The notes under the pieces: model-generated
What the model was told of the DNA's origin: nothing
Databases searched by the model: none
Seen by the model: the letters and a program-made list of their open reading frames with translations, nothing else
Position numbers and translations under genes: made by a program
In this document: positions 3,466-52,571 of the stretch, one piece after another
Numbering within the stretch: position 1 is the stretch's first letter
How the letters are laid out: each line of letters opens with the position of its first letter
Source of the DNA: Candidatus Omnitrophota bacterium
Lineage (GTDB): Bacteria; Omnitrophota; Gorgyraeia; Aquiviventales; Aquiviventaceae
Assembly: GCA_016198905.1 (NCBI GenBank)
Contig: JACQHR010000013.1
Coordinates: 6,153 to 70,152, forward strand
DNA length: 64,000 nucleotides
Direction: 5' to 3'

Positions 3466-3539
3466 CGCGACAGCACACAGCAGACAGCACACAGCAGACA
3501 GTAAAATCGTTCAACTCGCTCTCGTCCCTTTTGGTTCAT
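3462..3539 (-). CDS. candidate 25-codon upstream ORF (leader peptide) translationally coupled to aroK
   Basis: My own translation gives ATG at 3539 preceded by AAGAGGAAAG, with GAGGA 8 nt upstream. The peptide is MNQKGRERVERFYCLLCAVCCVLSR. The stop TGA (3464..3462) overlaps the aroK ATG (ATGA). The 3' half is encoded by the heptamer array. It is too short for the ORF track. Confidence 0.25.
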   Translation of the reverse strand: MNQKGRERVERFYCLLCAVCCVLSR

Positions 3540-3598
3540 CTTTGCTTTCCTCTTACTCAACGCACATTCTGTGTGCTGTGTGCTTAGTGCTGTTTGCT
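3471..3598. repeat. inverted heptamer arrays (CAGCACA / CTGTGTG) flanking a ~67-nt spacer
   Basis: Left array at 3471-3501: cagcaca cagcaga cagcaca cagcaga cag. Right array at 3569-3598: ctgtgtg ctgtgtg cttagtg ctgtttg. The reverse complement of the right arm matches the left arm at most positions. Confidence 0.85.
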
Positions 3599-8179: not shown

Positions 8180-8199
8180 TTCGTCTTCTCCTACGGACA

Positions 8200-8270
8200 T
8201 TTTGGATTTTGGATTTTTGATTTTGGATTGGACTGGTCATCTAAAATCCAAAATCGAAAATCTGAAATGC
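8200..8270. repeat. inverted heptamer arrays (TTTTGGA / AAAATCC) forming a hairpin
   Basis: Left array at 8200-8232: ttttgga ttttgga tttttga ttttgga ttgga. The loop is actggtcatct. Right array at 8243-8270: aaaatcc aaaatcg aaaatct gaaatgc. Confidence 0.85.
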
Positions 8271-8620: not shown

Positions 8621-9712
8621 TCACGACCGGCTCTTCGCCGTCTGCCGTAGGGCGGTTCGCTTCTGGTTCTTACTTCTGCCTACTGCCTTCTGCTGACTGC
8701 TTACTGCTGATTGCTTAGTGCTACTTCCAATCCAGGGCATCATGGCGCGCAGCTTAGCTCCGACTTGCTCGATGAGATGCTGTTCATCCTGCTGCATGAG
8801 TCGCGTGAAATTCGGGCGGCCGGCTTCATGCTCGGCGACCCATTCCTTTGCGAACTGACCCGACTGAATTTCCTTCAGCAATTGCTTCATCGTTTCTTTC
8901 ACGTGAGCGTCGATGACGCGCGGGCCGCAGTGGATGTCGCCCCACTTCGCGGTATCTGAGACGCGCTTGCGCATCCCCTGGATGCCGCTGGCCCAAAACA
9001 TGTCTGTGATCAATTTCAATTCATGCAGACATTCAAAGTACGCCACCTCGGGCTGATAGCCGGCCTCGACGAGCGTTTCGAATCCGGCTTTGATAAGCGC
9101 TGAGGCGCCGCCGCAGAGGACGGCCTGTTCGCCGAAATTGTCGGTCTCCGTTTCCTCTTTGAATGTCGTCTCGAGCACGCCGGCGCGCGTCGCCCCAATC
9201 CCTTTGGCCCATGCCAGCGCGATCGCTTTCGCCTGCCCCGTTGCGTTTTGATGGACCGCGATGAGGGCCGGCACGCCTTTGCCCTCTTGATATTGCGAGC
9301 GAACGAGGCTGCCAGGACCTTTCGGGGCGATCATCACGACGTCGACGCTCTTCGGCGGCTTGATCAACCCGTAGAGGATCGCGAAGCCGTGTGAAAATCC
9401 CAGCGCTTTGCCCGCTTTCAAGTTCGGCTCGATGGACTCCTTGTAAATCTGTCCTTGGAGCATGTCCTGCGCGAGCACGATGATGAGATCGGCTTTCTTC
9501 GTCGCCTCGGCGACAGACATCGGCGTAAACCCGTCGTGTTTCGCCAGGTCGAAGTTTGGTCCGCCAGGGCGCTGAGCGACAATGACCTTCACACCGCTAT
9601 CCCGCAGGTTCAATGATTGGCCGCGCCCTTGGATGCCGTAGCCGATCACCGCCACGGTCTTGCCCTTCAGCGCCTTGAGATCCGCGTCTTTCTCGTAGTA
9701 GATGTTCGCCAT
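8621..9712 (-). CDS. ilvC: ketol-acid reductoisomerase (class I) with a repeat-encoded C-terminal tail
   Basis: [40 protein letters not shown]... The KARI core ends near ...LRAMMPWI. The last ~30 aa ([35 protein letters not shown]) are read from the heptamer array at 8661-8726. Confidence 0.93.
8661..8726. repeat. heptamer array of ~9 units (TNCTGCN family) inside the ilvC 3' end
   Basis: ttctggt tcttact tctgcct actgcct tctgctg actgctt actgctg attgctt agtgcta. Confidence 0.8.
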
Positions 9713-9723
9713 TGGCCTTTTCC

Positions 9724-9786
9724 TTTGTGCTTTCTGCTGTGTGCTGTGTGCTTACTGCTGGGTGCTGAGTGCTGTGTGCTGCTCAG
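9724..9786. repeat. heptamer array of 9 units (TGTGTGC family) upstream of ilvC
   Basis: tttgtgc tttctgc tgtgtgc tgtgtgc ttactgc tgggtgc tgagtgc tgtgtgc tgctcag. Confidence 0.85.
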
Positions 9787-10272: not shown

Positions 10273-10335
10273 CACGTGCATACGTGCAGATGCGCATACG
10301 TCCGCACGTCTACACGCCCACACGTCTGCACGTCG
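10273..10335. repeat. octamer array of 8 units (CACGTCTN family)
   Basis: cacgtgca tacgtgca gatgcgca tacgtccg cacgtcta cacgccca cacgtctg cacgtcgt. It lies in the ilvB-ilvN gap. Confidence 0.8.
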
Positions 10336-22027: not shown

Positions 22028-22157
22028 CAGCACAAAGCACAAAGCAGACAGCACAACACTTCCGCAGCAATGGTTTGTGGCATGAGATGCGACTGTTTCC
22101 TACTCAAATATGTCATCTACTTTGTGCTTTATGCTTTATGCTTTGTGCTGTGTGCTG
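22028..22157. repeat. inverted heptamer arrays (CAGCACA / CTTTGTG) flanking a ~60-nt spacer
   Basis: Left array at 22028-22058: cagcaca aagcaca aagcaga cagcaca. Right array at 22120-22157: ctttgtg ctttatg ctttatg ctttgtg ctgtgtg. The right arm lies in the ispD 3' end. Confidence 0.85.
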
Positions 22158-22856
22158 GACTCTATGGGACAGTATAGTTTCCGCGAGGATGAGATCATCT
22201 TTTGTCGTGACTTTGATATTGCGCGGATCGCCATGCACCATCCGAACCGGAAACCCGGCGGCTTCGAGGATGGCCGCGTCATCCGGAAATTGCTCGAGCT
22301 GCGATCCCGCCCGCGTCAGCGCCTGCGTGATCCATTCCCGACGGAACACTTGCGGCGTCTGCACCAACCAAAGCGACTCGCGATCCAATGTCAGCCGAAC
22401 ACCCTGTCGCTCATCGACGGCTTTGACGGTCACCGTCGCCGGCAACCCGCACGCCACCGCGCCTTCGCGCCGCGCTGCACGCACGGCGCGTGCGATCACG
22501 TCCGGCGTCACGCAGGGGCGCGCGCCATCATGGATGAGCACCCAGCGCGCCGCGCGCGGCACCACGGCACACCCGCGCGCAACCGAGGCTGCGCGCGAGG
22601 CTCCTCCCACGCATGGCAAAACCGCCTTGGTGATTGCATGCTGCTTGAGAAACGTACGCATCCGCGCTTGCTCGCCTGCGCGTACGACGACGATAATCCA
22701 GCGGATGTCGGGGCTGACTTGCAGAGCCGCCAGCGTGTGGGCCAGCAACGGCCGACCATGAAGCGGCGCGAACAGTTTCGATGGTGATCCGGTAAAACGC
22801 GTGCCGCTGCCGGCCGCCGGCACGACCGCGGCGACGTCCATCGAATGCTGTTTCAT
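22113..22856 (-). CDS. ispD: 2-C-methyl-D-erythritol 4-phosphate cytidylyltransferase
   Basis: VAAVVPAAGSGTRF..., VLIHDGARP and VQTPQVF. An alternative start is ATG 22841. The last ~15 codons lie in a heptamer array. Confidence 0.88.
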   Translation of the reverse strand: MKQHSMDVAAVVPAAGSGTRFTGSPSKLFAPLHGRPLLAHTLAALQVSPDIRWIIVVVRAGEQARMRTFLKQHAITKAVLPCVGGASRAASVARGCAVVPRAARWVLIHDGARPCVTPDVIARAVRAARREGAVACGLPATVTVKAVDERQGVRLTLDRESLWLVQTPQVFRREWITQALTRAGSQLEQFPDDAAILEAAGFPVRMVHGDPRNIKVTTKDDLILAETILSHRVQHTAQSIKHKAQSR

Positions 22857-22960
22857 GTTTCACGTTCCAAGTTTCATGTTGCGGGCAACAAACGCCGAAG
22901 CTTTGATTCCCTACCCTGTCAACTTCGAACCTGAAACCTGAAACCTGAAACTTGGAACAT
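22850..22960. repeat. inverted heptamer arrays (GTTTCAT / GAAACCT)
   Basis: Left array at 22850-22884: gtttcat gtttcac gttccaa gtttcat gttgcgg. Right array at 22926-22960: cgaacct gaaacct gaaacct gaaactt ggaacat. Confidence 0.8.
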
Positions 22961-35896: not shown

Positions 35897-37405
35897 TCAT
35901 GAGATTTCAGGTTTCAGTAAAGGAAAAAGAATGACGTCCTTGATCGAGGGTTGGTTCAGCAGAATCATCGCGAGGCGGTCGACGCCGACGCCAAGGCCGC
36001 CGGCCGGCGGCATGCCGTATTCGAGCGCCGTCACAAAGTCTTCATCAATCACCCGCCTTTGGGGCGTGGGGCGTGGGGCGTGGGGCGTGGGAGAACTGGT
36101 TTTCCCTCGCCCCCCGTCTCCCGCCCCCTGCCCCTCTAGCTGAGCTTCGAATCGGCGACGCTGCTCGATCGGATCATTCAACTCGGAGTACGCATTCGCC
36201 ACTTCCATGCCGCCGATGTAGAGCTCAAAACGCTCCGTGATGAGTGGATTGTCAGGTTTGCTCTTGGCTAGCGGCGACAACTCCGTCCAATAATCCACCA
36301 CGAAGAGCGGTTTCGATTTCGTCTTCGGGGAAAAGAGCTGCTCGGTCAGTCGGACGAGTTGGGAGCGGTTCAGTTCCTTGACCTGCATCCCCTTGCGCTG
36401 CAGGACCGTTTGCATCTCTTCGAGCGAGGACTGCGGCGTCAACCCCATCTCTTCCATCGCCTTGGCGAATGACACGCGCTCCCACGGCGGTGTGAGATCA
36501 ATCGGCTGACCTTGATACTCACATTGGAGCGAGCCGACGAGCGTTTTGGCCGCGTCGCAAATGAGCTCCTGCACGAAGTCCATCATGAACGCGCAGTCTT
36601 GATACGCCGCGTACGCCTCGAGCATCGTGAATTCCGGATTGTGCTGCGTCGAGAGGCCTTCATTGCGAAAGCAGCGGTTGATTTCATACACGCGTTCCAG
36701 TCCTCCAACGAGCAGCTTCTTGAGATACAGCTCCGGCGCGAGGCGCAGATAGAAATCCGCATCGAGCGCGTTGTGATGCGTGACGAACGGCTCGCCCGCG
36801 GCGCCCCCGGCGATAGGATGCATCATCGGCGTTTCGACTTCGAGAAATCCACGGCGCTCCAGCGTGCGCCGCAGCGACGCCAGCAACTGGCTGCGCTGGA
36901 AGAAGACTTTCCGTACCGGCTCATTGGCGATGAGATCAAGATACCGCTGGCGATAGCGGATCTCGACGTCCTTGAGCCCATGCCACTTCTCCGGCATCGG
37001 TCGCAAGGCCTTCGCCAATATGGTAAAGCGATCCACCTGCACCGTCACTTCATCGGTCTTCGTGCGAAAGAGCGCGCCGGTCACTCCGATAATGTCGCCC
37101 AGGTCCAGCTCGCCGAAAAGTGTAAACGCCTCATCGCCCACGCGATCCTTCTTGACACACATCTGAATCTTGCCGCTGGCGTCCCGCAGATCGGCGAAGT
37201 TCAGTTTGCCCATCGTCCGTTTGGCGCAGAGGCGGCCGGCCGTGCTAACCGACTTGCCCTCGGTGAACCCCGCCACCAACGTCTGGATCGGCTCAGCCTT
37301 CGGAAACGCGGCTCCATACGGAACGATTCCTTGCCGCTCGAGCGCATGCAGCTTGTCGCGGCGGGTGCGGGCTTGTTCGTTCAGATCAGGGTCGTTGTAA
37401 GCCAT
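35897..37405 (-). CDS. lysS: lysine--tRNA ligase (class II), carrying a palindromic-element insertion
   Basis: MAYNDPDLNEQARTRRDKL..., an OB-fold, and class II motifs (FLEVETPMMH; CFRNEG; GGLGVGVDRLAM). The start is ATG 37405. The insert GQGAGDGGRGKTSSPTPHAPRPTPQRR lies between RFEAQ and IDEDFVTALEYGMPP. Confidence 0.92.
   Translation of the reverse strand: MAYNDPDLNEQARTRRDKLHALERQGIVPYGAAFPKAEPIQTLVAGFTEGKSVSTAGRLCAKRTMGKLNFADLRDASGKIQMCVKKDRVGDEAFTLFGELDLGDIIGVTGALFRTKTDEVTVQVDRFTILAKALRPMPEKWHGLKDVEIRYRQRYLDLIANEPVRKVFFQRSQLLASLRRTLERRGFLEVETPMMHPIAGGAAGEPFVTHHNALDADFYLRLAPELYLKKLLVGGLERVYEINRCFRNEGLSTQHNPEFTMLEAYAAYQDCAFMMDFVQELICDAAKTLVGSLQCEYQGQPIDLTPPWERVSFAKAMEEMGLTPQSSLEEMQTVLQRKGMQVKELNRSQLVRLTEQLFSPKTKSKPLFVVDYWTELSPLAKSKPDNPLITERFELYIGGMEVANAYSELNDPIEQRRRFEAQLEGQGAGDGGRGKTSSPTPHAPRPTPQRRVIDEDFVTALEYGMPPAGGLGVGVDRLAMILLNQPSIKDVILFPLLKPEIS
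36061..36134. repeat. GC-rich palindromic element, family C copy 2 (inside lysS)
   Basis: (GGGGCGT)x4 GGGAGAACTGGTTTTCCCTCGCCCCCCGTCTCCCGCCCCCTGCCCC. The centre GGTTTTCCCTCGCCCC is shared with the lnt copy. The left arm has become a perfect heptamer tandem. Confidence 0.85.
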
Positions 37406-37605: not shown

Positions 37606-39297
37606 TTATCGAAGACGTGCTATCATCCAACCGAGGATGCCGATGAGGCAAGCCCAAGCGAACCAGTCACCCCAACGCTCATAGAGGGTGCGGGTGTAGC
37701 TCAGCGGGACATCACACGCGTGCGTGCCGGCAATGAAGAGTTCGCGACCCTGTTCATCGTGAACGCTTCCAAGAATGCGACCGGCGGGATCGATGCAGCC
37801 GGACCATCCCGTGTTGGCCGCGCGCACCACCGGCACCCGCAGCTCCACCGCGCGGAAGATCGAGGTCTGCGCGTGCTGATAGGCCGCCGCCGTCGGCCCG
37901 AACCACGCGTCGTTGGTGATGACCACCAGCATCCGCGCCCCTTCTTGGACAAACCGTCGCGCAAGCTCAGGAAACACATCTTCGAAACAGATGAGGACGC
38001 TGAACGGGGGCAAGGGGCGGGAGACAGGAGACGTGGGAAAACCGGTTTTCCCTCGCCCCTCGTCTCTCGCCCCCCGCCCCAGCACATCAGCTTCTTGCTC
38101 AATATGAAATACGGTGTGGTGATGCCCACGATCGAAGTCGCCGATCGGCGGCAACAGGCGGCGCAGCCACGGCAAGGTGCGTTCAAAGGGCACGAACTCG
38201 CCGAACGGGACCAGGTGCAGCTTGTCATAGCGCTGATCGATGACGCCGCGATGATCGACGAGTGCTGCGCTGTTGGTCATCATCCACTCCACGCCATCAA
38301 GATGTCCCATTGGAGCGCCCACCAACAGGGGTGCTTTCACCGACTTGGCAAGCGCAAAGACGCGCTGCGTGATCTCCTCATCGAGCCCGAAATAGCCCGG
38401 CACGGAAGTCTCCGGCCAGACGATGAGATCAGGCTCGGTGCGCGCAGCTTCACGCGTGAGCGTTTCGTACTGCGTCAAGATCCGCTCCTGGAACGCTTCG
38501 TCCCATTTCTCAGTTTGAGGGATGTTGCCCTGCGCCACCGCTACCCTGATCGATGAGGCATCGACGATGCTGCTGATGCGCCACGCGCCGTAGCCAAGCC
38601 CAATGAGGACGAGGATCATGACGCACGCCGCGCGAATAAGAACGGATTGTGTGCGTTTTCCGCCCCCCACCCCCCCGGCCCGCCGATTACTACCGTCGGG
38701 GCGGGCCCGCCCCCTGCCCCAAACTGTCGTGCTGATGTAGTCCGCAATCGCCGCATTCCCCATCACGATCAGGAACGATATCCCCCACGCGCCGGTCAGA
38801 TCTGCGAACTGAATGAGCGGCCGCCACGACGTCTGCGAATACGCCAGCAGATTCCAGCCCATCCCCGTGAGGACGTGGCTGCGCGCAAACTCCAGCGTCA
38901 CCCACAGCGCAGGAATCACAATCAGACTCCGGACACCAGATCTCAGACCACAGACAAACCTACCCTGATGTCTGATGTCTGATGTCTGATGTCTGACGAC
39001 GCACCAGCCGAAGATCCCGAAATAGAGCGCGAGGTACGCGCACAGCACGAGCCACCCGACGACGGTGACATAGATCAGCCACCACATCGAGCCGAGGAAG
39101 AACAGTGCACCGATGAGATACGACCACCAAAACGCCGCGCGCGATGACGTCGTGCGCAACAGCAACAGCCACGGAACGAAAGCAATCCACGCGCACCAGG
39201 GCTGATTGAAATTCGGAAATGACAGGACGAGCAGGATGGCGCTACTGAGCGCCGGCAACAGAGGACGAACGATGCGGGACAAACGACGCGTGGTCAA
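37606..39297 (-). CDS. lnt: apolipoprotein N-acyltransferase, carrying three repeat-derived insertions
   Basis: N-terminal multi-TM region plus a CN-hydrolase domain with E/K/C motifs (VWPETSVPG; YDKLHLVPFGE; VLICFED). The suggested start is TTG 39297, which overlaps the upstream stop (TTGA). The ORF-track Met at 39393 would overlap the upstream gene by 100 nt. Confidence 0.85.
   Translation of the reverse strand: MTTRRLSRIVRPLLPALSSAILLVLSFPNFNQPWCAWIAFVPWLLLLRTTSSRAAFWWSYLIGALFFLGSMWWLIYVTVVGWLVLCAYLALYFGIFGWCVVRHQTSDIRHQGRFVCGLRSGVRSLIVIPALWVTLEFARSHVLTGMGWNLLAYSQTSWRPLIQFADLTGAWGISFLIVMGNAAIADYISTTVWGRGRARPDGSNRRAGGVGGGKRTQSVLIRAACVMILVLIGLGYGAWRISSIVDASSIRVAVAQGNIPQTEKWDEAFQERILTQYETLTREAARTEPDLIVWPETSVPGYFGLDEEITQRVFALAKSVKAPLLVGAPMGHLDGVEWMMTNSAALVDHRGVIDQRYDKLHLVPFGEFVPFERTLPWLRRLLPPIGDFDRGHHHTVFHIEQEADVLGRGARDEGRGKTGFPTSPVSRPLPPFSVLICFEDVFPELARRFVQEGARMLVVITNDAWFGPTAAAYQHAQTSIFRAVELRVPVVRAANTGWSGCIDPAGRILGSVHDEQGRELFIAGTHACDVPLSYTRTLYERWGDWFAWACLIGILGWMIARLR
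38006..38080. repeat. GC-rich palindromic element, family C copy 3 (inside lnt; 75 bp)
   Basis: GGGGGCAAGGGGCGGGAGACAGGAGACGTGGGAAAACCGGTTTTCCCTCGCCCCTCGTCTCTCGCCCCCCGCCCC. This is an imperfect palindrome centred on AACCGGTT. Confidence 0.85.
38660..38720. repeat. GC-block palindromic element, family D copy 2 (inside lnt)
   Basis: CCGCCCCCCACCCCCCCGGCCCGCC-gattactaccgtc-GGGGCGGGCCCGCCCCCTGCCCC. Confidence 0.7.
38923..39000. repeat. inverted heptamer arrays (CAGACNN / TGATGTC) inside lnt
   Basis: Left array at 38923-38957: cagactc cggacac cagatct cagacca cagacaa. Right array at 38966-39000: tgatgtc x4 perfect, then tgacgac. The module is 78 nt (26 codons) and the frame stays open. Confidence 0.85.
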
Positions 39298-39935
39298 TAG
39301 CTCGACGAATGTTGCAATTGCTGTTGCGACTTCCAGACGCCATACCCGACGAGCGATCCCCAGATCGCGCCATGCAGCACGCTGAAGTACCACGGCTTAA
39401 ACGCGAGCCACCACCAGAACGATCCGGCGCATCCGCTCACGGCGCCGATCAGGACATGTGTCAGTAACCGCCGGCTCTTCAACAGGCCGCACGCCGCCGC
39501 GAGGAGTACGAACACCGATCCCGCGAGTCCAAAAGCTTGGAAGAGCGTCCACAGCGTTTCGAGCTCGAGCCGAAACGGCCACAGCGCCCGCAGGATGTCT
39601 TCTCGAGACAACCCAGCGATATCGCCAGACCAGAGTTTGACGGAACTGACATAGAGGCTAATCGGAATATAGGGAATCCATCCGCAGATGATGCCGCTGA
39701 CCGGCACACCCACCCATCGCATCCAGAGAGGTTTCTTCGAAAGCCTTGCGGCGAGTCCCACGCCCACGAGGGCCAGCAATGCGCCGTGGGCCGCTCCCGC
39801 CGGCACGATGTGCCAAGTGAACTGCCCACTAAACACGTCCGACGGCACGGGAAACTTGGCATAGCACCACCACGCATTGATCGCCCCACCCACTCCGCCC
39901 ATCAATCCGATCAGACCAAGCGCACGAGCTCTCAT
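39294..39935 (-). CDS. hypothetical multi-pass membrane protein
   Basis: 213-aa ORF with about 6 hydrophobic segments. It is co-directional and tightly packed with its neighbours. I recognise no motif. Confidence 0.5.
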   Translation of the reverse strand: MRARALGLIGLMGGVGGAINAWWCYAKFPVPSDVFSGQFTWHIVPAGAAHGALLALVGVGLAARLSKKPLWMRWVGVPVSGIICGWIPYIPISLYVSSVKLWSGDIAGLSREDILRALWPFRLELETLWTLFQAFGLAGSVFVLLAAACGLLKSRRLLTHVLIGAVSGCAGSFWWWLAFKPWYFSVLHGAIWGSLVGYGVWKSQQQLQHSSSY

Positions 39936-39960
39936 CGGTGGGCCTTATTCCAACCACCCG

Positions 39961-39997
39961 CACGCCAGCACGTCTGCACGTCTACACGTATGCACGG
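39961..39997. repeat. octamer array (CACGTCTN family, same units as 10273-10335)
   Basis: cacgccag cacgtctg cacgtcta cacgtatg cacgg. It lies in the secA-downstream gap. Confidence 0.8.
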
Positions 39998-39999
39998 TT

Positions 40000-42900
40000 C
40001 TATTGCCCATGACACTTCTTGTACTTCTTATTGCTACCGCACGGGCAGGGCTCGTTGCGACCGACTTTGGGGCCTGTGTGTTGCGTTGGACTTCGAGGCT
40101 GGAGGCTGGAGGCTGGAGGCTGGAGGCGTTTCTCCGAAGCTTGGAGCCTGGAGCCTGGAGCCGAACCTATTGGAAGCGTTGATGCTTCATCAGTGAGAGG
40201 AGCGGGAATGAAGCGCGCGGCTTCCGAGGCCTCGGGATGGACTTCTTGCACCGGCGTTCTAGCGAACACGCTGACAGGGCGCGCCTCAGCCGCAACGGGC
40301 TGTACACGCAACAGCATCGTCAGCGAATCCAGCTTGATGGACTCGATCATCACTTGAAACAATTCGTGGGCTTCGCGCTGATATTCGACGACGGGATCGC
40401 GCTGGCCGTAGGCGCGCAAGTGGATGCCTTCGCGCAACGCATCCATCATGTAGAGATGGTCTTTCCATTTTTGATCCATGATCGAGAGCAGGACGGTGCG
40501 CTCCAGCTGCGCCATCATCTCCGGGCCGATCGAGACCCGCTTCGCCTCATAGGCCTGCTCGAAGGCGTGCGTGATGGCCGCGCCAATGGCGTCGCGGTCT
40601 GCGATCGTCGCTTCTTCGCCGAGCGTCACCATGAACTGGCGGCCGGCGGCTTCGCGCAACCCGGCGAGGTCCCAGGCATCCGATCGCAGTTCGTTGGAGG
40701 CAAACGTGCTAAGCAGGCCATCGGCGACCTCTTTGATGATTTCGCGGACAAGACCCTGGAGGTCCACTCCTTCGAGAATCCGACGGCGCTGCTCATAGAT
40801 GACCTCGCGCTGCCGGTTCATCGTGCTGTCGTACTCGACGAGTTGTTTCCGGATATCAAAGTTGTGGCCCTCGACGCGCCGCTGCGCGGTCTCAATGGCT
40901 TTCGAGACCATCCCGTGCTCGATCGGCAAGCCCTCTTCCCATTTAAACCACGGCAGCTCCATCAGCTTCGCGATGCGATCCGAGCCGAAAATGCGCATCA
41001 AATCATCTTCGAGGGAGAGATAAAACCGCGAGGATCCCGGATCGCCCTGACGGCCGGAACGACCGCGCAACTGATTGTCGATGCGGCGCGCCTCATGGCG
41101 CTCGGTGCCGAGCACGTGCAGGCCTCCGACAGCGACGACTTGTTCGTGTTCAGACTCGCAGAGTTTCTTGAATCGCTCGACGATGGCGTGCCGCTCAGTC
41201 TCCTCCAGCGGGGCTTGGCGCTTCTCTTCCTCGGCGCGGATGGCGTCATCCGCCAGCGCTTGAGGATGGCCGCCAAGGAGAATGTCGGTGCCTCGTCCGG
41301 CCATGTTGGTGGCGATCGTGAGCGCGCCTTTGCGGCCGGCCTGGGCGACGATGTGCGCTTCATGCTCATGATATTTGGCGTTGAGGACGTTGTGCGGCAG
41401 CCCGGCCTTGATGGTCGCTGCGGTCTGCACGAGACGCACGATGTCCTCGAGCCTGAAGATGAGCGTCGACTTGGGCGCCTCGCGCTTGAGTTGCGCCAAC
41501 CACTCGCCGACTTGCGCATCCGTGAGGGTCGCCGGCCGCGCGAGTCCTTGTTCAAGCGACGTGCGCAGCGCGTCGCCGAGCGATTCCTTCTTCAGCTCCT
41601 CCAGCGTCCACTGACACACCGTGCTCAACCGCTTCATGATGGGGCCGGGCTCTTTCAGGAACCGCGAGAGCCGCTCGGACTTCTCGATCGAGATCGTGCC
41701 GATGAGCACCGGCTGTCCGGCGCGGTAATGACTGACGATTTCCTGCACGACCGCGAGAAATTTCTCATCCTCGGTTTTATACACCGTATCCGCAAAGTTG
41801 GCGCGGATGAGCGGGCGATTGGTCGGGATGGCCAAGACGTCGAGCTGGTAGATCGTGCTGAACTCCTGCGCTTCGGTGGACGCGGTGCCGGTCATGCCGG
41901 CGAGCTTTTCGTACATGCGGAAGTAATTCTGAAAGGTCACCGAGGCCAGCGTTTGATTCTCTTCGCGAATCCGCACGTTTTCCTTCGCCTCGATCGCTTG
42001 ATGGAGCCCATCGCTCCAGCGCCGTCCCGGCATCAGACGCCCCGTGAACTCATCCACGATGATGATCTCGCCGTCCTTGACCATGTAGTCCACGTCGCAT
42101 TTGAAGAGCTCGTGCGCGCGCAGCGCCTGATTGATGTGATGCACGAGGCGCATGTTCATCTCGTCGTAGAGATTGCCGACCCCGAGCAGCTCTTCGCAGT
42201 GCTTGATGCCCTCTTCCGTGAGACTGACACCTTGCTCTTTCTCATCCACTTCGTACTCCGCGCCTTTGTTCAACCGGGCGACCAATTTATCCAGCTTGTA
42301 GTAGAGCTCGGTCGACTCTTCGGCGGGGCCGGAGATGATGAGCGGTGTTCTGGCTTCATCGATCAAAATGCTGTCGACTTCATCCACGATGGCATAGTGG
42401 TACTCACGTTGGACGAGATCTTCGAGGCGAAACCGCATGTTATCGCGCAGGTAGTCGAAGCCGAACTCGTTGTTCTGCCCGTAGGTGATATCGGCCGCGT
42501 AGGCCTCTTTGCGCGGCACCGGCCGCAGGTGCATAAAGCGCTCGGCCGTCTGCGTCCAGGAGGGATCGTAGAGAAAGGAGAGCGACTCTTCTCCCGGTCG
42601 CCGCTCAGCCGGATCCACACCCTGGATGACGCCGAGGGTGAGCCCCAGCGCGTGATAGATCGGCCCCATCCAGCGCGTATCGCGGCGCGCAAGGTAGTCG
42701 TTGACCGTCACGATGTGCACACCGCGGCCCGTCAGGGCGTTGAGATACGCAGGCAGGGTCGCCACGAGCGTCTTGCCTTCCCCGGTTGCCATCTCCGAAA
42801 TCTTGCCCTCGTGCAGCACCATGCCGCCCATGAGCTGCGTATCGAAGTGCCGCATGTTCAGCACCCGTCGGCTCGCCTCTCGCACGACCGCGAAGGCTTC

Positions 42901-43198: not shown

Positions 43199-43230
43199 CT
43201 GTGTGCTTTCTGCTTAGTGCTGTGTGCTGG
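43199..43230. repeat. heptamer array (CTGTGTG family) spanning the prfB stop / secA start gap
   Basis: ctgtgtg ctttctg cttagtg ctgtgtg ctgg. Confidence 0.8.
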
Positions 43231-44360
43231 ATTGCGCTTTCCACTTCAAATACGCTTCCATGAAGGGATCGAGTTTGCCCTCGAGCACCGCCTGCGCGTT
43301 TCCCGTCTCATGCTCCGTGCGATGATCTTTCACCATATTATACGGATGCAGCACGTAGGAGCGAATCTGCGAGCCCCACTCGATTTTCTGTTTGGACTGA
43401 TACTCCTTGGCGGCTTGCTCTTCCTTTTTGCGTCGTTCGAGATCCGCTAAGCGCGCTTTGAGCACGTGCATCGCTTTGGCTTTGTTCTGCAGCTGGGAGC
43501 GCTCGTCCTGGCATTGCACCACCGTCCCGGTCGGCACGTGCGTGATGCGCACCGCCGAGTCGGTGGTATTCACCGACTGGCCGCCTTTGCCGCCGGAGCG
43601 GAAGACGTCGATGCGCAGGTCGCCTTCGTTGATTTCAATCGGCGCGTCTTCATCGGCTTCCGGGACGACATCAATCGAGACGAAGGAGGTGTGGCGGCGC
43701 TTGTTGGCATCGAAGGGTGAAATCCGCACGAGCCGGTGCACCCCTTCCTCGCTCTGGAGATAGCCGTAGGCGTACGGGCCCTTCACGATGACCGTCGCAC
43801 TCTTAACACCGGCTTCTTCGCCCGGCTGCAGGTCGATGAGTTCCGTCGAAAACCCGCGTTCATCCGCCCAGCGACGGTACATCCGCAGCAGCATCTGCGC
43901 CCAGTCGCACGATTCGGTGCCGCCCGCGCCTGAATGGACTGTGAGGATCGCATGCTTGCCGTCGACCTCGCCGCCGAGGAGCCGCTGAATCTCGAGCTGC
44001 CCAAACTGCGCCTCGAGCTTGGTGATGTCTTGGGCCAGCTGTGCCAGTGAGGATTGATCGTCGCCATCGATGATCCCGAGCAACTCGGTGAGGTCGCGCA
44101 GCCCCTGCTCGAACTGGTCGATCGGTGTGCGCTGCGCTTTGAGGGTTTTCAGGGTTTGGATGGTCTTGTTGGCGCGGTCCTGATCGGACCAGAAGTCGCC
44201 CTGCGCCATCGCCTGCTCGATCTCGGTGATGCGAGCGGTGATCGCCTCGAGGTCAAAGATACCTCCGCAGTTCGGTCCAGCGCTGCTGGAGCACGGAAAG
44301 GCGATTGCGCAAGTCAACGAGTTGGTCCGGAACCTGAGATGGCGACATTGAGAGAAGCAT
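43214..44360 (-). CDS. prfB: peptide chain release factor 2 (requires programmed +1 frameshift; join 44360..44256 and 44254..43214)
   Basis: Frame 0 from ATG 44360 reads [35 protein letters not shown] then TGA. The +1 frame continues DLEAITARI...FWSDQ... and contains SPF and GGQ (GGKGGQSVN). Confidence 0.92.
44252..44266 (-). promoter_or_regulatory. RF2 programmed +1 ribosomal frameshift site (internal SD-like GGAGG + CUU UGA C)
   Basis: The minus strand reads CGG AGG TAT CTT TGA CCT. GGAGG is at 44266..44262, CTT at 44258..44256, TGA at 44255..44253, followed by C. Confidence 0.9.
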
Positions 44361-50224: not shown

Positions 50225-50995
50225 TCATCGCGTCCCCGTCTCGCACAGCTCCAGGAGGAGCTGCTCCAGCGCAAGTTCCGGGCTGGCCCGCCCGCTCTTC
50301 GCATCCCGTTGCACCTGCCAGCACGACGCGAGCTGACGATCCAACACCGCTTGGGATCTGCGGACCACCTCGCTTCGAAGGCGTTCGACATGCCATATCC
50401 GTAAGCCGGTCACCGCGGCGATCTGATCCGCGGAATACCCGCTGTTCGCAAGCCGTTTGACCGCCACCCACCGCTGCACTTGCCACGCCACGAGCCCCAG
50501 CAGTTCGAAGACCTCTTTGCCTTCCACCAGTTGCTCGTGGGCTGCTCGAAGGGCTCCGGCGACGTCACCTTGCCCAAGCGCGTCGGTCAGCGCAAACGGT
50601 TTGCTGGATGCCGTCGGCCGTCCTTGAAATGATTCCACCGTGATGGCCGGATGCTGCTTGGCCAGCGCATGGCGCACGCTCAGCTCCGTCTCGACCAAGA
50701 GCACGACGCAGGCGATGGAGGCGATGGTGTCGGCGTGATGAATGAGGGCCTCGACGCACGCCGCGTCCAGACGGTGCGCGTGGTCAACAACGATCAGCCG
50801 GACGGGACTGAGTGCCGGCTGCTGGCGGCAGAGGGCCAGCAGGTCGGCCGCACTCGTGACCGCGCCGTCGAGCTCGTGCCGGTCGAGGGAGTGAACCTGG
50901 CGGGTGCGCTCAAGCTCGTGGAGGCGCTGAAGTTTCCCAGCGCGATCAGGACCAAGAAAAAGAAGGATGCCACCTATGGGGCGAGCCGACATCAT
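50225..50995 (-). CDS. holA: DNA polymerase III subunit delta (short form), probable
   Basis: 256 aa with an N-terminal LLFLGPDRAGKLQRLHEL pattern. The position downstream of lptE matches the conserved lptE-holA pairing. The sequence evidence alone is weak. Confidence 0.55.
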   Translation of the reverse strand: MMSARPIGGILLFLGPDRAGKLQRLHELERTRQVHSLDRHELDGAVTSAADLLALCRQQPALSPVRLIVVDHAHRLDAACVEALIHHADTIASIACVVLLVETELSVRHALAKQHPAITVESFQGRPTASSKPFALTDALGQGDVAGALRAAHEQLVEGKEVFELLGLVAWQVQRWVAVKRLANSGYSADQIAAVTGLRIWHVERLRSEVVRRSQAVLDRQLASCWQVQRDAKSGRASPELALEQLLLELCETGTR

Positions 50996-51021: not shown

Positions 51022-51603
51022 TTACCAGTTCTCAACCGTGCGCTCGACGATGCGTCGAGCTAGATCAGTCAGCGCGCGGTCAAGCGCTTGGGATTCGGTT
51101 TCCACCGTCACGTTGTTCCCCGAGGCGAAATAACTCGTATCCCCCGTGAGGCGCTCCTCTTCCCAAATGATGGCGTTGTTCGATTGATCGATGAAGCGCA
51201 GATTGACGACGACGTTGAGCCGCCACTCCTCCACCTGCTGCTGGGCGTTGTAGCGCAACGCATCGCGGCGAAACTCCACGAGCTCGCCTTCCAGGCGCGT
51301 ATCCGCGCGATCTTGGCTCGACGGGCGCATGAGTCCGGTAAACTGGAACCGGTTGATCACGGCGTTGGTCAGATCGACTTCCATGCGGTGGCGATAGATC
51401 GGATACTGTTCAGTCCCGGACGTCAGCCGCGTGACATCGATCTTGTTCGCGAAGGGTTTGATGTAGACGGTCTTATAGTTGGAGGGCAAGCCGGGTCGAG
51501 CGGAGTAGCCGCATCCGGCAGACAGCAGACAGCAGACAGCAGACAGCACAAAAGAACAACACCACTTTCTGTGTGCTTTGTGCTGTGTGCTTTGTGCTTC
51601 CAT
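51022..51603 (-). CDS. lptE: LptE-like outer-membrane lipoprotein
   Basis: Lipoprotein signal peptide with lipobox LSAGC, followed by GYSARPGLPSNYKTVYIKPFANK.... The size and the position between bamD and holA fit LptE. The ATG overlaps the bamD stop (TAATG). Confidence 0.55.
   Translation of the reverse strand: MEAQSTQHKAHRKWCCSFVLSAVCCLLSAGCGYSARPGLPSNYKTVYIKPFANKIDVTRLTSGTEQYPIYRHRMEVDLTNAVINRFQFTGLMRPSSQDRADTRLEGELVEFRRDALRYNAQQQVEEWRLNVVVNLRFIDQSNNAIIWEEERLTGDTSYFASGNNVTVETESQALDRALTDLARRIVERTVENW
51517..51601. repeat. inverted heptamer arrays (AGCAGAC / TGCTNTG) encoding the lptE signal peptide
   Basis: Left array at 51517-51551: ggcagac agcagac agcagac agcagac agcacaa. Right array at 51567-51601: ttctgtg tgctttg tgctgtg tgctttg tgcttcc. 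Confidence 0.85.
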
Positions 51604-52571
51604 TATGAAGCGGGGGACGGACGGGGCGTCAGCACTTGCAGTCTGGCGGCCGCTTGCGCCGCCCAGGACGTGGCGCCGAACTGCTGGACAATCGCTTCGT
51701 AGTAGATGCGGGCGGACTCCGGATGCCGACGCCGCTCGTAGAACTGGGCGACCTGAAACTCGTGCTGGGCGCGCCGCGTCTTCAACTCTTCCAAGCGCCC
51801 GGCCGCTTCCTTCGAGAGGCTGCTTTCCGGATACTCGTGCACGAAGGCTTCCAGCTCGCGCACCGCGTGATCCGTCGGCGACTGATCGTACTCGGCTTTG
51901 AACGTCCCCTTCAAACTCGCCTGCGCGATTTGAAAACGCGCGTCATCGACGAGCGGCGAGTCCGGATAGCGCGAGATCACTTGCTCAAACGCGCTGACGG
52001 CTGCCTCGTAATCCTGCAGTGCTAAGTGTGCCAAGCCCAGCTTGTACTGCGCTAACTGGCCGTGCTCGCTGAAGGGCCCGTCATCGACGATGGCCTGAAA
52101 AATCTCCACGGCTTTGTCGCGCGCCGGCAAAAGCGCAGCGATACCGAAGAGTTTTCGCTTCTTGCCTGCGAGGAAGTAGTTGCCCAACTGATATTCCCGC
52201 TCGAGGATCTCGTCAAAGCGTTTGGTCGAGGGATAGGTTTGGACCGTCTTGCGATATTCAAGGAAGGCTTTGTAGTAGTCGCCTTCCTCTTCGTTGCAGC
52301 GGCCCACGTAGTATTGGGCTTCGGCGGCTTCGTGGGATTGCTTGTAGGATTTCAGGAGCTTGCGAAACTCGATGCCGGCTCGGTGATAGTCGTGGCGCTC
52401 GAAGAATCCCACCGCGAAGAGCAGCTGCTCTTCCGGCGTGTCCTTCACCGCTCCGCTGGGCCCGATCCATCCGGTCTGCGGCGACCATACCCAAGCGGCA
52501 AACGCCGTCGAAGGAACCCCGACCGTGAGGATCAGCGCACTGGCAATAGAGAGGAGAACACGAGGTTTCAT
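51603..52571 (-). CDS. bamD: BamD/YfiO-like TPR outer-membrane assembly factor
   Basis: MKPRVLLSIASALILTVGVPSTAFA signal peptide. TPR repeats include YKLGLAHLALQDYEAAVSAFEQVISRYPDSPLVDDARFQIAQ. The start is ATG 52571. Confidence 0.65.
   Translation of the reverse strand: MKPRVLLSIASALILTVGVPSTAFAAWVWSPQTGWIGPSGAVKDTPEEQLLFAVGFFERHDYHRAGIEFRKLLKSYKQSHEAAEAQYYVGRCNEEEGDYYKAFLEYRKTVQTYPSTKRFDEILEREYQLGNYFLAGKKRKLFGIAALLPARDKAVEIFQAIVDDGPFSEHGQLAQYKLGLAHLALQDYEAAVSAFEQVISRYPDSPLVDDARFQIAQASLKGTFKAEYDQSPTDHAVRELEAFVHEYPESSLSKEAAGRLEELKTRRAQHEFQVAQFYERRRHPESARIYYEAIVQQFGATSWAAQAAARLQVLTPRPSPAS

Follow-up and report, generated by a model that had tools for sequence, protein, structure and literature searches.

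In the window, a 64,000-nucleotide stretch of contig JACQHR010000013.1 from a Candidatus Omnitrophota bacterium, the gene for the envelope-biogenesis lipoprotein LptE starts with a pair of inverted arrays of tandem heptamers, and most of its leader appears to be read from them. We consider it probable that these arrays, which behave like the short tandemly repeated repetitive (STRR) sequences of cyanobacteria, colonised a signal peptide that LptE already possessed and came to be translated as most of the leader. The minus strand at the 5' end of lptE reads ATGGAAGCACAAAGCACACAGCACAAAGCACACAGAAAGTGGTGTTGTTCTTTTGTGCTGTCTGCTGTCTGCTGTCTGCTGTCTGCCGGATGC and yields a leader of 31 residues, the same translation that a first-pass annotation, made from the letters of this DNA alone, had obtained. 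The gene and the parts of its 5' end are listed below, with the evidence for each; repeats were located with Tandem Repeats Finder (TRF).

51022 to 51603, minus strand: lptE coding sequence, 193 amino acids (open reading frame (ORF), Pfam LptE and homologues).
51601 to 51605, minus strand: TAATG junction, in which the bamD stop TAA (51603-51605) and the lptE ATG (51601-51603) have one base in common (sequence; equivalent overlap across related loci).
51569 to 51599, minus strand: arm A, mRNA nucleotides 5-35, four copies of AGCACAA/AGCACAC, codons 2-12 (EAQSTQHKAHR), an extension of the polar and basic n-region (TRF, inverted repeat, translation).
51549 to 51568, minus strand: non-repeat spacer of 20 nt, the loop of the hairpin, mRNA nucleotides 36-55, K13-F18 (TRF, sequence).
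51518 to 51548, minus strand: arm B, mRNA nucleotides 56-86, (TGCTGTC) x 4.4, codons 19-29 (VLSAVCCLLSA), the hydrophobic core and lipobox positions -4 to -2 (TRF, translation, inverted repeat).
51511 to 51516, minus strand: GGA TGC, Gly30-Cys31, the end of the lipobox with the presumed lipidated +1 cysteine, outside the arrays (Cys31 invariant in a 32-sequence alignment; fit to a PS51257-type pattern).

TRF described arm A as (TGTGCTT) x 4.0 at 51572-51599 or, alternatively, as a perfect 14-mer x 2.1 at 51569-51598, and arm B as (GCAGACA) x 4.4 at 51518-51548 with 100% matches and a score of 62. The two arms are 79-86% complementary, with about one mismatch per heptamer. The first-pass annotation had the leader encoded entirely by the arrays, the polar n-region by one arm and the h-region with the lipobox by the other. 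This is right for most of the leader (22 of its 31 codons, 2-12 and 19-29), with arm A giving the polar n-region and the complementary arm B the h-region, but K13-F18 come from the spacer, which supplies a single basic residue and begins the h-region, and the Gly-Cys of the lipobox lies in non-array DNA beyond arm B. The TAATG overlap of bamD and lptE is present as it had been described. The product of the gene matches Pfam PF04390 (E = 2.7e-12, 47.8 bits against a cut-off of 23) over residues 43-189 and profile positions 1-118 of 118, that is, the whole profile; a scan of the same product against NCBIfam gave no match. Among 766 lptE homologues, some of which NCBI calls "LptE family protein", the mature part is 60-76% identical.

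The evidence that the arrays are translated comes from related loci. These were collected from 41 species genomes, through an alignment-based scan of genome contigs (a single-protein scan gave no relatives), and from 80 metagenome contigs, and 95 distinct usable loci were left after duplicates were removed. A locus was called array-bearing if it had a clear period-7 array between the overlapped start and the Cys codon, as did 49 of the 95. Nearly all 95 loci, with or without arrays, have an in-frame lptE start that overlaps the bamD stop or lies directly against it (ATGA, TAATG, GTGA or TGATG). From this start, across the arrays and as far as the invariant lipobox Cys, the frame stays open in 48 of the 49 array-bearing loci, and the sole exception (L124) has a different upstream region. 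One third would be expected in frame by chance without coding constraint, and the binomial P is < 1e-9 even with the count reduced to 20 independent unit types. Individual loci point the same way: in L003 the single AGCAGTA unit that would bring a TAA into frame reads AGCAAAC instead, in the arrays of L043 and L126 the stops are confined to the other two frames (TAG out of frame), and in L104 and L126 the ATGA overlap was found by inspection to be in frame. A variant arrangement occurs in L005, where bamD and lptE are separated by a 50-nt spacer, arm A contains stops, the ATG lies between the arms and arm B alone would be translated. The ATG of the TAATG overlap, which had been taken as the lptE start from the window alone, is thus upheld by the conservation of both the overlap and the open frame, and the comparison strongly supports a leader into which both arrays would be translated.

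The same loci give the direction of evolution. The ATGA overlap also occurs at array-free loci, including those of the furthest removed relatives (38-48% identity, low G+C), and ordinary short leaders such as MRVIAFILILSFVSGC follow it there. In clearly array-free loci the median signal peptide is 20 amino acids long, the median uncharged run before the Cys is 14 residues and the median number of Lys and Arg residues in the n-region is 2, as compared with 31.5, 17 and 3 in array-bearing loci. Since relatives without arrays already have a short signal peptide, the arrays would have colonised a pre-existing export signal, and the proposal that a hairpin was exapted into such a signal goes too far in view of the overlapped start and ordinary signal peptide of these relatives. 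About half of the loci have a signal peptide unrelated to any repeat; such leaders in related genomes had been named beforehand as a refutation, and they reveal the evolutionary direction while leaving the case for translation intact. The comparison demonstrates that the export signal, as predicted from sequence, is older than the arrays, which would have invaded and lengthened the signal peptide that they now appear to encode.

The units themselves differ among species, examples of the pairs being AGCACAC/CTGTCTG, CAGCACT/TTGCTTA, AGCAGTA/TGCTTAC, GGACAGA/TCTGTCT, AGAAGGC/CTGCCTT and CAGACAT/GTCTGTG, together with the unit TTTGGTC. Close relatives were compared over the 130 nt upstream of the Cys codon. 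L011 and L098 have mature DNA that is 95% identical and leader DNA that cannot be aligned, with unrelated arrays and junction types; L013 and L016 (93%) differ by the presence of a five-copy array in one and none in the other; L012 and L075 (98%) have arm B in common and not the 5' half; and between L019 and L076 (96%) the array varies in length by 12 nt, in frame. These differences indicate wholesale replacement of arrays between near relatives, and the frame was kept in every pair. The closest relative of the window, L042, has mature DNA that is 90% identical, with equal array lengths and copy number. It differs from the window in arm B, where three units in a row show a concerted T-to-C change that arm A does not compensate. 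The peptide is still leader-like, so the constraint visible in this lineage acts on the peptide rather than the stem. An exact 30-mer search among the metagenome contigs found no near-identical genomes. In L101, an array-free locus, codon 4 of lptE is an in-frame TGA (ATG ATC AAG TGA), whereas the close relative L020 has AGG CGA at this place; the stop might reflect a pseudogene, recoding or an error of sequencing.

A property of the genetic code may account for the ease with which such arrays serve as leaders. Translation of a heptamer array passes through each of the three frames in turn and therefore yields a single 7-amino-acid repeat, regardless of phase. The mean hydropathies of an array peptide and of the peptide from the reverse-complement array are correlated at r = -0.71 across the complete set of 8264 heptamers without stops on either strand. 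Since reverse-complement codons have opposite hydropathy, a hydrophobic 3' arm in a stem will as a rule be paired with a 5' arm that is polar and in many cases basic. In the lptE of the window the Kyte-Doolittle means are about -1.5 to -2 for the peptide of arm A (STQHKAH-type) and about +2.4 to +2.5 for that of arm B (CCLLSAV). All 10 arm-B arrays at lptE were without stops and charges and had a mean hydropathy of +2.1, a standard reached by 3 of 15 other arrays. Such a bias is what a selective filter for signal-peptide compatibility would leave. The remark that these arrays readily generate hydrophobic peptides rich in Cys, Leu, Ala and Val is borne out and quantified by these figures.

The leader has several features expected of a lipoprotein signal peptide. 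The n-region has a net charge of +2 (K9, R12 and K13 against E2), the uncharged run before the lipobox Cys extends over 17 residues (W14-G30), and Cys31 falls within the expected range of 15-35, is invariant in the 32-sequence alignment and is followed by a conserved GY[TS]xRPG motif. The lipobox L-S-A-G-C gives a mixed result, fitting the PS51257-type pattern and failing the strict form. The PS51257-type pattern fits 35 of 46 array-bearing leaders and 21 of 23 array-free leaders. A signal of the Tat type was considered and set aside, as inspection of the leader peptides gave no twin-arginine consensus.

The explanation that we favor runs as follows. The stop of bamD and the start of lptE overlap with no spacer, which places an array pair at this junction within the first part of the lptE coding sequence, where it is translated. 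Arm A would give an extended polar and basic n-region, the 20-nt loop would add further basic residues and begin the h-region, and arm B would give the hydrophobic core as far as lipobox position -2, with non-repeat DNA providing the Gly-Cys. Signal peptidase II would remove the whole leader and mature LptE would be left untouched. The arrays would be tolerated rather than needed: signal peptides may be constrained in their physico-chemical properties alone, a heptamer array would need only a net length that is a multiple of three and no stops, and complementary codons would yield a polar 5' arm and a hydrophobic 3' arm, which is the order n then h. The arrays would thus have colonised, lengthened and repeatedly replaced the leader, whatever process generates them, and selection would have weeded out variants with a shifted frame, with stops or with charges in arm B.

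Several observations weigh against this explanation. No Lys or Arg occurs in the first seven residues of the leader, the first being K9, and the stricter PROSITE side-rule requires one there. Position -3 of the lipobox is a non-canonical Ser in the window, so that the strict form [LVI][ASTVI][GAS]C does not fit, and 11 of the 46 array-encoded leaders miss even the PS51257-type pattern. Cleavage and lipidation at Cys31, with processing by Lgt and LspA and export, are something that we infer. On inspection no Shine-Dalgarno-like sequence was seen before the lptE ATG. The related loci are phylogenetically non-independent, and the counts drawn from them overstate their statistical weight. Finally, the arms stay complementary although the units differ, with fold z-scores reaching -8.2 in relatives, so the hairpin itself could be under selection, a pattern that pure tolerance leaves unexplained.

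Three other explanations can be set against the comparative evidence. The arrays might be an untranslated intercistronic spacer, with lptE beginning at GTG codon 19 and giving a 175-amino-acid protein that starts MLSAVCCLLSAGC. The NCBI annotation of this genome does place the start there (51547-51549, at the 3' edge of the hairpin loop; protein P0002, 99% identical), internal starts have been chosen by gene callers in the homologues P0009, P0011 and P0040 as well, and arm A is genuinely untranslated in L005. However, GTG19 is itself within arm B, so that arm B is translated under either start, and it would leave only 12 residues, MLSAVCCLLSAG, none of them charged, before the Cys. It is the only alternative to the ATG in the window, no other in-frame start being found between the two, the loop included. 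The three homologues with short calls all carry an upstream in-frame ATGA, so gene callers appear to misplace starts at arrays systematically, and with an in-frame start at the bamD stop and an open frame in all but one of the array-bearing loci we regard an untranslated spacer as very unlikely. An equally poor prospect is a contingency locus, in which frameshifts caused by gained or lost 7-nt units would act as an on/off switch for lptE and possibly holA. The repeat is a non-triplet one inside a signal-peptide coding region, the arrays turn over very quickly among close relatives, and there is a documented precedent in the opa genes of Neisseria (PMC3960869). Against this, no out-of-frame allele due to array length was seen among the array-bearing loci (L124 differs upstream), the window and L042 have equal copy numbers, and the single length difference between near relatives is the in-frame one of +12 nt, a tally drawn from consensus assemblies, which cannot reveal minority array-length alleles. 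LptE and HolA also carry out core functions, which makes them poor candidates for switching. As for repeats mis-joined by a short-read metagenome assembler, the source is a metagenome-assembled genome with similar arrays at many sites, but the same structure and flanks are found in the independent ENA contig L042, dozens of independent assemblies always give the order bamD-lptE-holA, and arrays of about 30 nt are in our judgement shorter than typical reads; we give an artefact of this kind almost no credence.

A more substantial challenge is that the inverted arrays are retained both for the peptide and for the structure of the RNA. With a stem starting 4 nt after the ATG, a free 30S subunit would be unable to load, and only ribosomes that finish bamD would open the stem and start again on lptE; the output of lptE would be tied to translation of bamD, or the stem might stabilise or process the operon mRNA. 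Fold z-scores were calculated against dinucleotide shuffles, using for the window the 93-nt RNA from ATG to Cys and 200 shuffles. Eight relatives gave strongly negative values (L003 -8.15, L006 -7.26, L023 -6.98, L017 -5.94, L014 -4.27, L019 -3.78, L021 -3.49 and L001 -3.42), as against +0.2 to +1.2 in five array-free controls. Complementarity of at least 18 of 21 positions between the arms was found in 8 of 35 loci versus 1.3% of cross-locus pairings, and of at least 17 of 21 in 27 of 49 array-bearing versus 3 of 46 array-free loci; the arms thus remain complementary although the units differ among species. Intergenic array pairs clamp the upstream stop beside the downstream start, the lptE ATG lacks a Shine-Dalgarno-like sequence, and the same role has been proposed for the STRR hairpins of cyanobacteria (PMC2670836). 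In the window, however, the fold does not stand out from the shuffles (z = -1.03; 33 of the 200 fold as well). Arm B changed in L042 without compensation in arm A, and two or more arrays reach the detection threshold in only 16 of the 49 array-bearing loci, single arrays being found for example in L009, L038, L055, L075 and L119. If the arrays are young, their complementarity could be a legacy of how they originated. The overlapped start is present without arrays, so coupling needs no hairpin. The suggestion that a hairpin sequesters the first ~30 codons accordingly finds no support in this genome and strong support in the relatives. Coupling of lptE to termination on bamD is plausible, with an overlap of stop and start that predates the arrays; as a joint idea, hairpin and coupling lack support in this genome and may apply to the relatives with strong stems. 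On balance we hold a dual-coding hairpin to be unlikely. In its broadest form the idea makes inverted heptamer arrays actively generated cistron-boundary elements of Omnitrophota, formed by templated copying and homogenisation and selected as hairpins; the ~90 nt at bamD/lptE would then be dual-coding, both a stem gating lptE initiation to bamD-terminating ribosomes and a signal peptide, with the symmetry of the code permitting both and the arms co-varying. This we find rather unlikely, and colonisation of an existing signal peptide by tolerated arrays is the account that we retain.

Three described systems come near to the arrangement at lptE. The closest match for the element itself is the cyanobacterial STRR heptamers, for example between hupS and hupL, which form intercistronic hairpins of unknown function for which roles in transcript stability or translational coupling have been proposed (PMC2670836). 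They too are tandem 7-bp units at cistron boundaries, in inverted arrays able to form a hairpin. The Omnitrophota arrays differ in their host and in their units (AGCACAC/TGCTGTC and many more), and at lptE the pair lies inside an ORF with both arms translated. STRR1-3 have consensus units such as CCCCAGT and a cyanobacterial host, and the arrays of the window share neither, so they are STRR-like in behaviour and not members of the class. To our knowledge STRRs have been described as non-coding. In Neisseria opa, CTCTT repeats in the coding region of the leader peptide act as frameshift switches (PMC3960869). There, as at lptE, a short non-triplet repeat is translated within the part of an outer-membrane protein gene that codes for the signal peptide. 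The CTCTT repeat encodes the hydrophobic core of the opa leader. Opa, however, has a single array without an inverted partner, varies in phase and varies in copy number within strains, whereas lptE is a core envelope-biogenesis gene in which no out-of-frame alleles due to the array were seen. The Rickettsia palindromic elements (RPEs), conserved families of ~150 bp, occur between and inside genes and are translated in frame and tolerated, according to a review that mentions no use of them as a signal peptide (PMC10969869). Tolerance of an in-frame palindromic repeat by the protein is the likeness, seen in the window in LptE, LysS, Lnt and SecA; RPEs, however, have a conserved sequence family and a conserved peptide, whereas the Omnitrophota arrays are variable heptamers around unrelated spacers with no conserved core. 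Blalock-type observations, that complementary codons tend to encode opposite hydropathy, concern peptides from opposite strands. At lptE, in contrast, the "sense" and "antisense" versions are on one mRNA strand, as the two halves of one signal peptide. A full-text literature search gave no description of heptamer or tandem repeat arrays in Omnitrophica or Omnitrophota, and opa was the nearest case that a search for repeats in signal peptides brought up. None of STRR, opa or RPE joins both translated arms of a hairpin as the two halves of a signal peptide.

If our explanation is correct, the lptE loci are a natural experiment on signal-peptide constraint, in which little sequence information is needed and the n-then-h architecture comes as a free by-product of codon complementarity. 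Dozens of species would export a conserved envelope-biogenesis lipoprotein by means of leaders read from fast-evolving repeat hairpins. There is a practical consequence for annotation, as starts placed inside repeats truncate signal peptides, and lipoproteins of Omnitrophota would be missed. As far as the full-text searches show, the repeat system is largely undescribed, and with it the origin and turnover of STRR-like hairpins, and any regulatory role that they may have, could be tested beyond the cyanobacteria.

The two genes that flank lptE in the operon are the following.

51603 to 52571, minus strand: bamD-like gene, upstream of lptE (TIGR03302, 119 bits against a cut-off of 81; Pfam YfiO).
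50225 to 50995, minus strand: holA, downstream of lptE in the same operon context (TIGR01128, 93.9 bits against a cut-off of 80).

The start of bamD was placed at MKPRVLL, as it seems the probable one; the longest ORF extends to 52745. The order bamD-lptE-holA is found in the window, L042 and L043, and the position of holA next to lptE matches the order in E. coli, which we take to be leuS-lptE-holA. A scan for promoters and terminators at the bamD/lptE junction gave nothing, and the Rfam scan of the region gave only a chance miRNA match (21 bits against a gathering score of 94), with no family that fits.

The lptE arrays belong to a family that is distributed along the window. TRF found 22 period-7 arrays with a score of at least 40, as compared with none in 20 first-order Markov simulations. 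At gene junctions, which carry such inverted pairs at high density, the usual layout is an arm A at or over the upstream stop, a unique loop of 50-70 nt and an arm B ending 2-8 nt before the next ATG. Two junction pairs and three pairs inside genes are listed here.

3470 to 3598, minus strand: non-coding array pair, arm A from the upstream stop and arm B ending 8 nt before the downstream ATG (TRF, sequence).
22029 to 22156, minus strand: junction array pair, arm A the C-terminal tail (…RVQHTAQSIKHKAQSR*) of an ispD-like ORF and arm B in the 5' untranslated region (TRF, sequence).
36060 to 36134, minus strand: inverted pair (TGGGGCG/CCCCCGC on the plus strand) in lysS, in frame as …GAGDGGRGKTSSPTPHAPRPTPQ… (TRF; alignment gap to PDB 3a74).
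38925 to 38996, minus strand: inverted pair in lnt, (CAGACAT) x 4.6 with a GTCTG-rich partner, in frame (TRF; 12-amino-acid gap versus E. coli Lnt 6nwr).
40095 to 40162, minus strand: inverted pair in the C-terminal linker of secA, 26 residues in frame, just before the conserved zinc-binding tail (TRF, translation).

The first-pass annotation had called the same module non-coding at 3471-3598 and at 22028-22157. This is so at the former, whereas at the latter the 5' arm supplies the final ~13 codons of the ispD-like ORF. Junction arrays likewise contribute their 5' arms as polar C-terminal tails to an ilvC-like ORF (8621-8722) and to the ORF at 43214..44359 (43214-43229), as in the ispD-like ORF (22113-22156). 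In LysS the array segment is a loop insertion of 17 amino acids relative to Geobacillus LysS (PDB 3a74). The lnt gene (37606-39393, minus strand) has two or three in-frame array-pair segments, for example VRHQTSDIRHQGRFVCGLRSGVRS, with arrays at 38925-38996, ~38010-38085 and ~38660-38725, and the segments coincide with gaps of 12, ~25 and ~27 amino acids versus E. coli Lnt. As array pairs are translated in LysS, Lnt and SecA too, the LptE leader is one case of a genome-wide habit. The unit CAGACAT (peptide RHQTSDI) is found in arm A of lptE in L045 and L046 (~532-562) and in the lnt insertion of the window (38965-38996), so the same units recur at different sites across genomes.

Two general descriptions of the family were tried and rejected. 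A miniature inverted-repeat transposable element with a conserved core does not agree with the loops of the different array modules, which were unrelated on inspection, and a universal polarity, with the A-rich arm 5' and the T-rich arm 3', is true for the AGCACAC family but fails at 8199-8268 and 22849-22951. In a crude ORF-based gene list of the window 45 of 50 ORFs are on the minus strand, which makes the transcription and replication polarity of the arrays inseparable here. Single-arm CA-rich arrays of up to 8 copies lie right before start codons at 9726-9781 and 43199-43229, with no complementary partner nearby. A second class of repeats, period-8 arrays (ACGTGCAT / CACGTCTA / GCACGTCT), was present in the intergenic spacers at 10274-10334 and 39960-39996.

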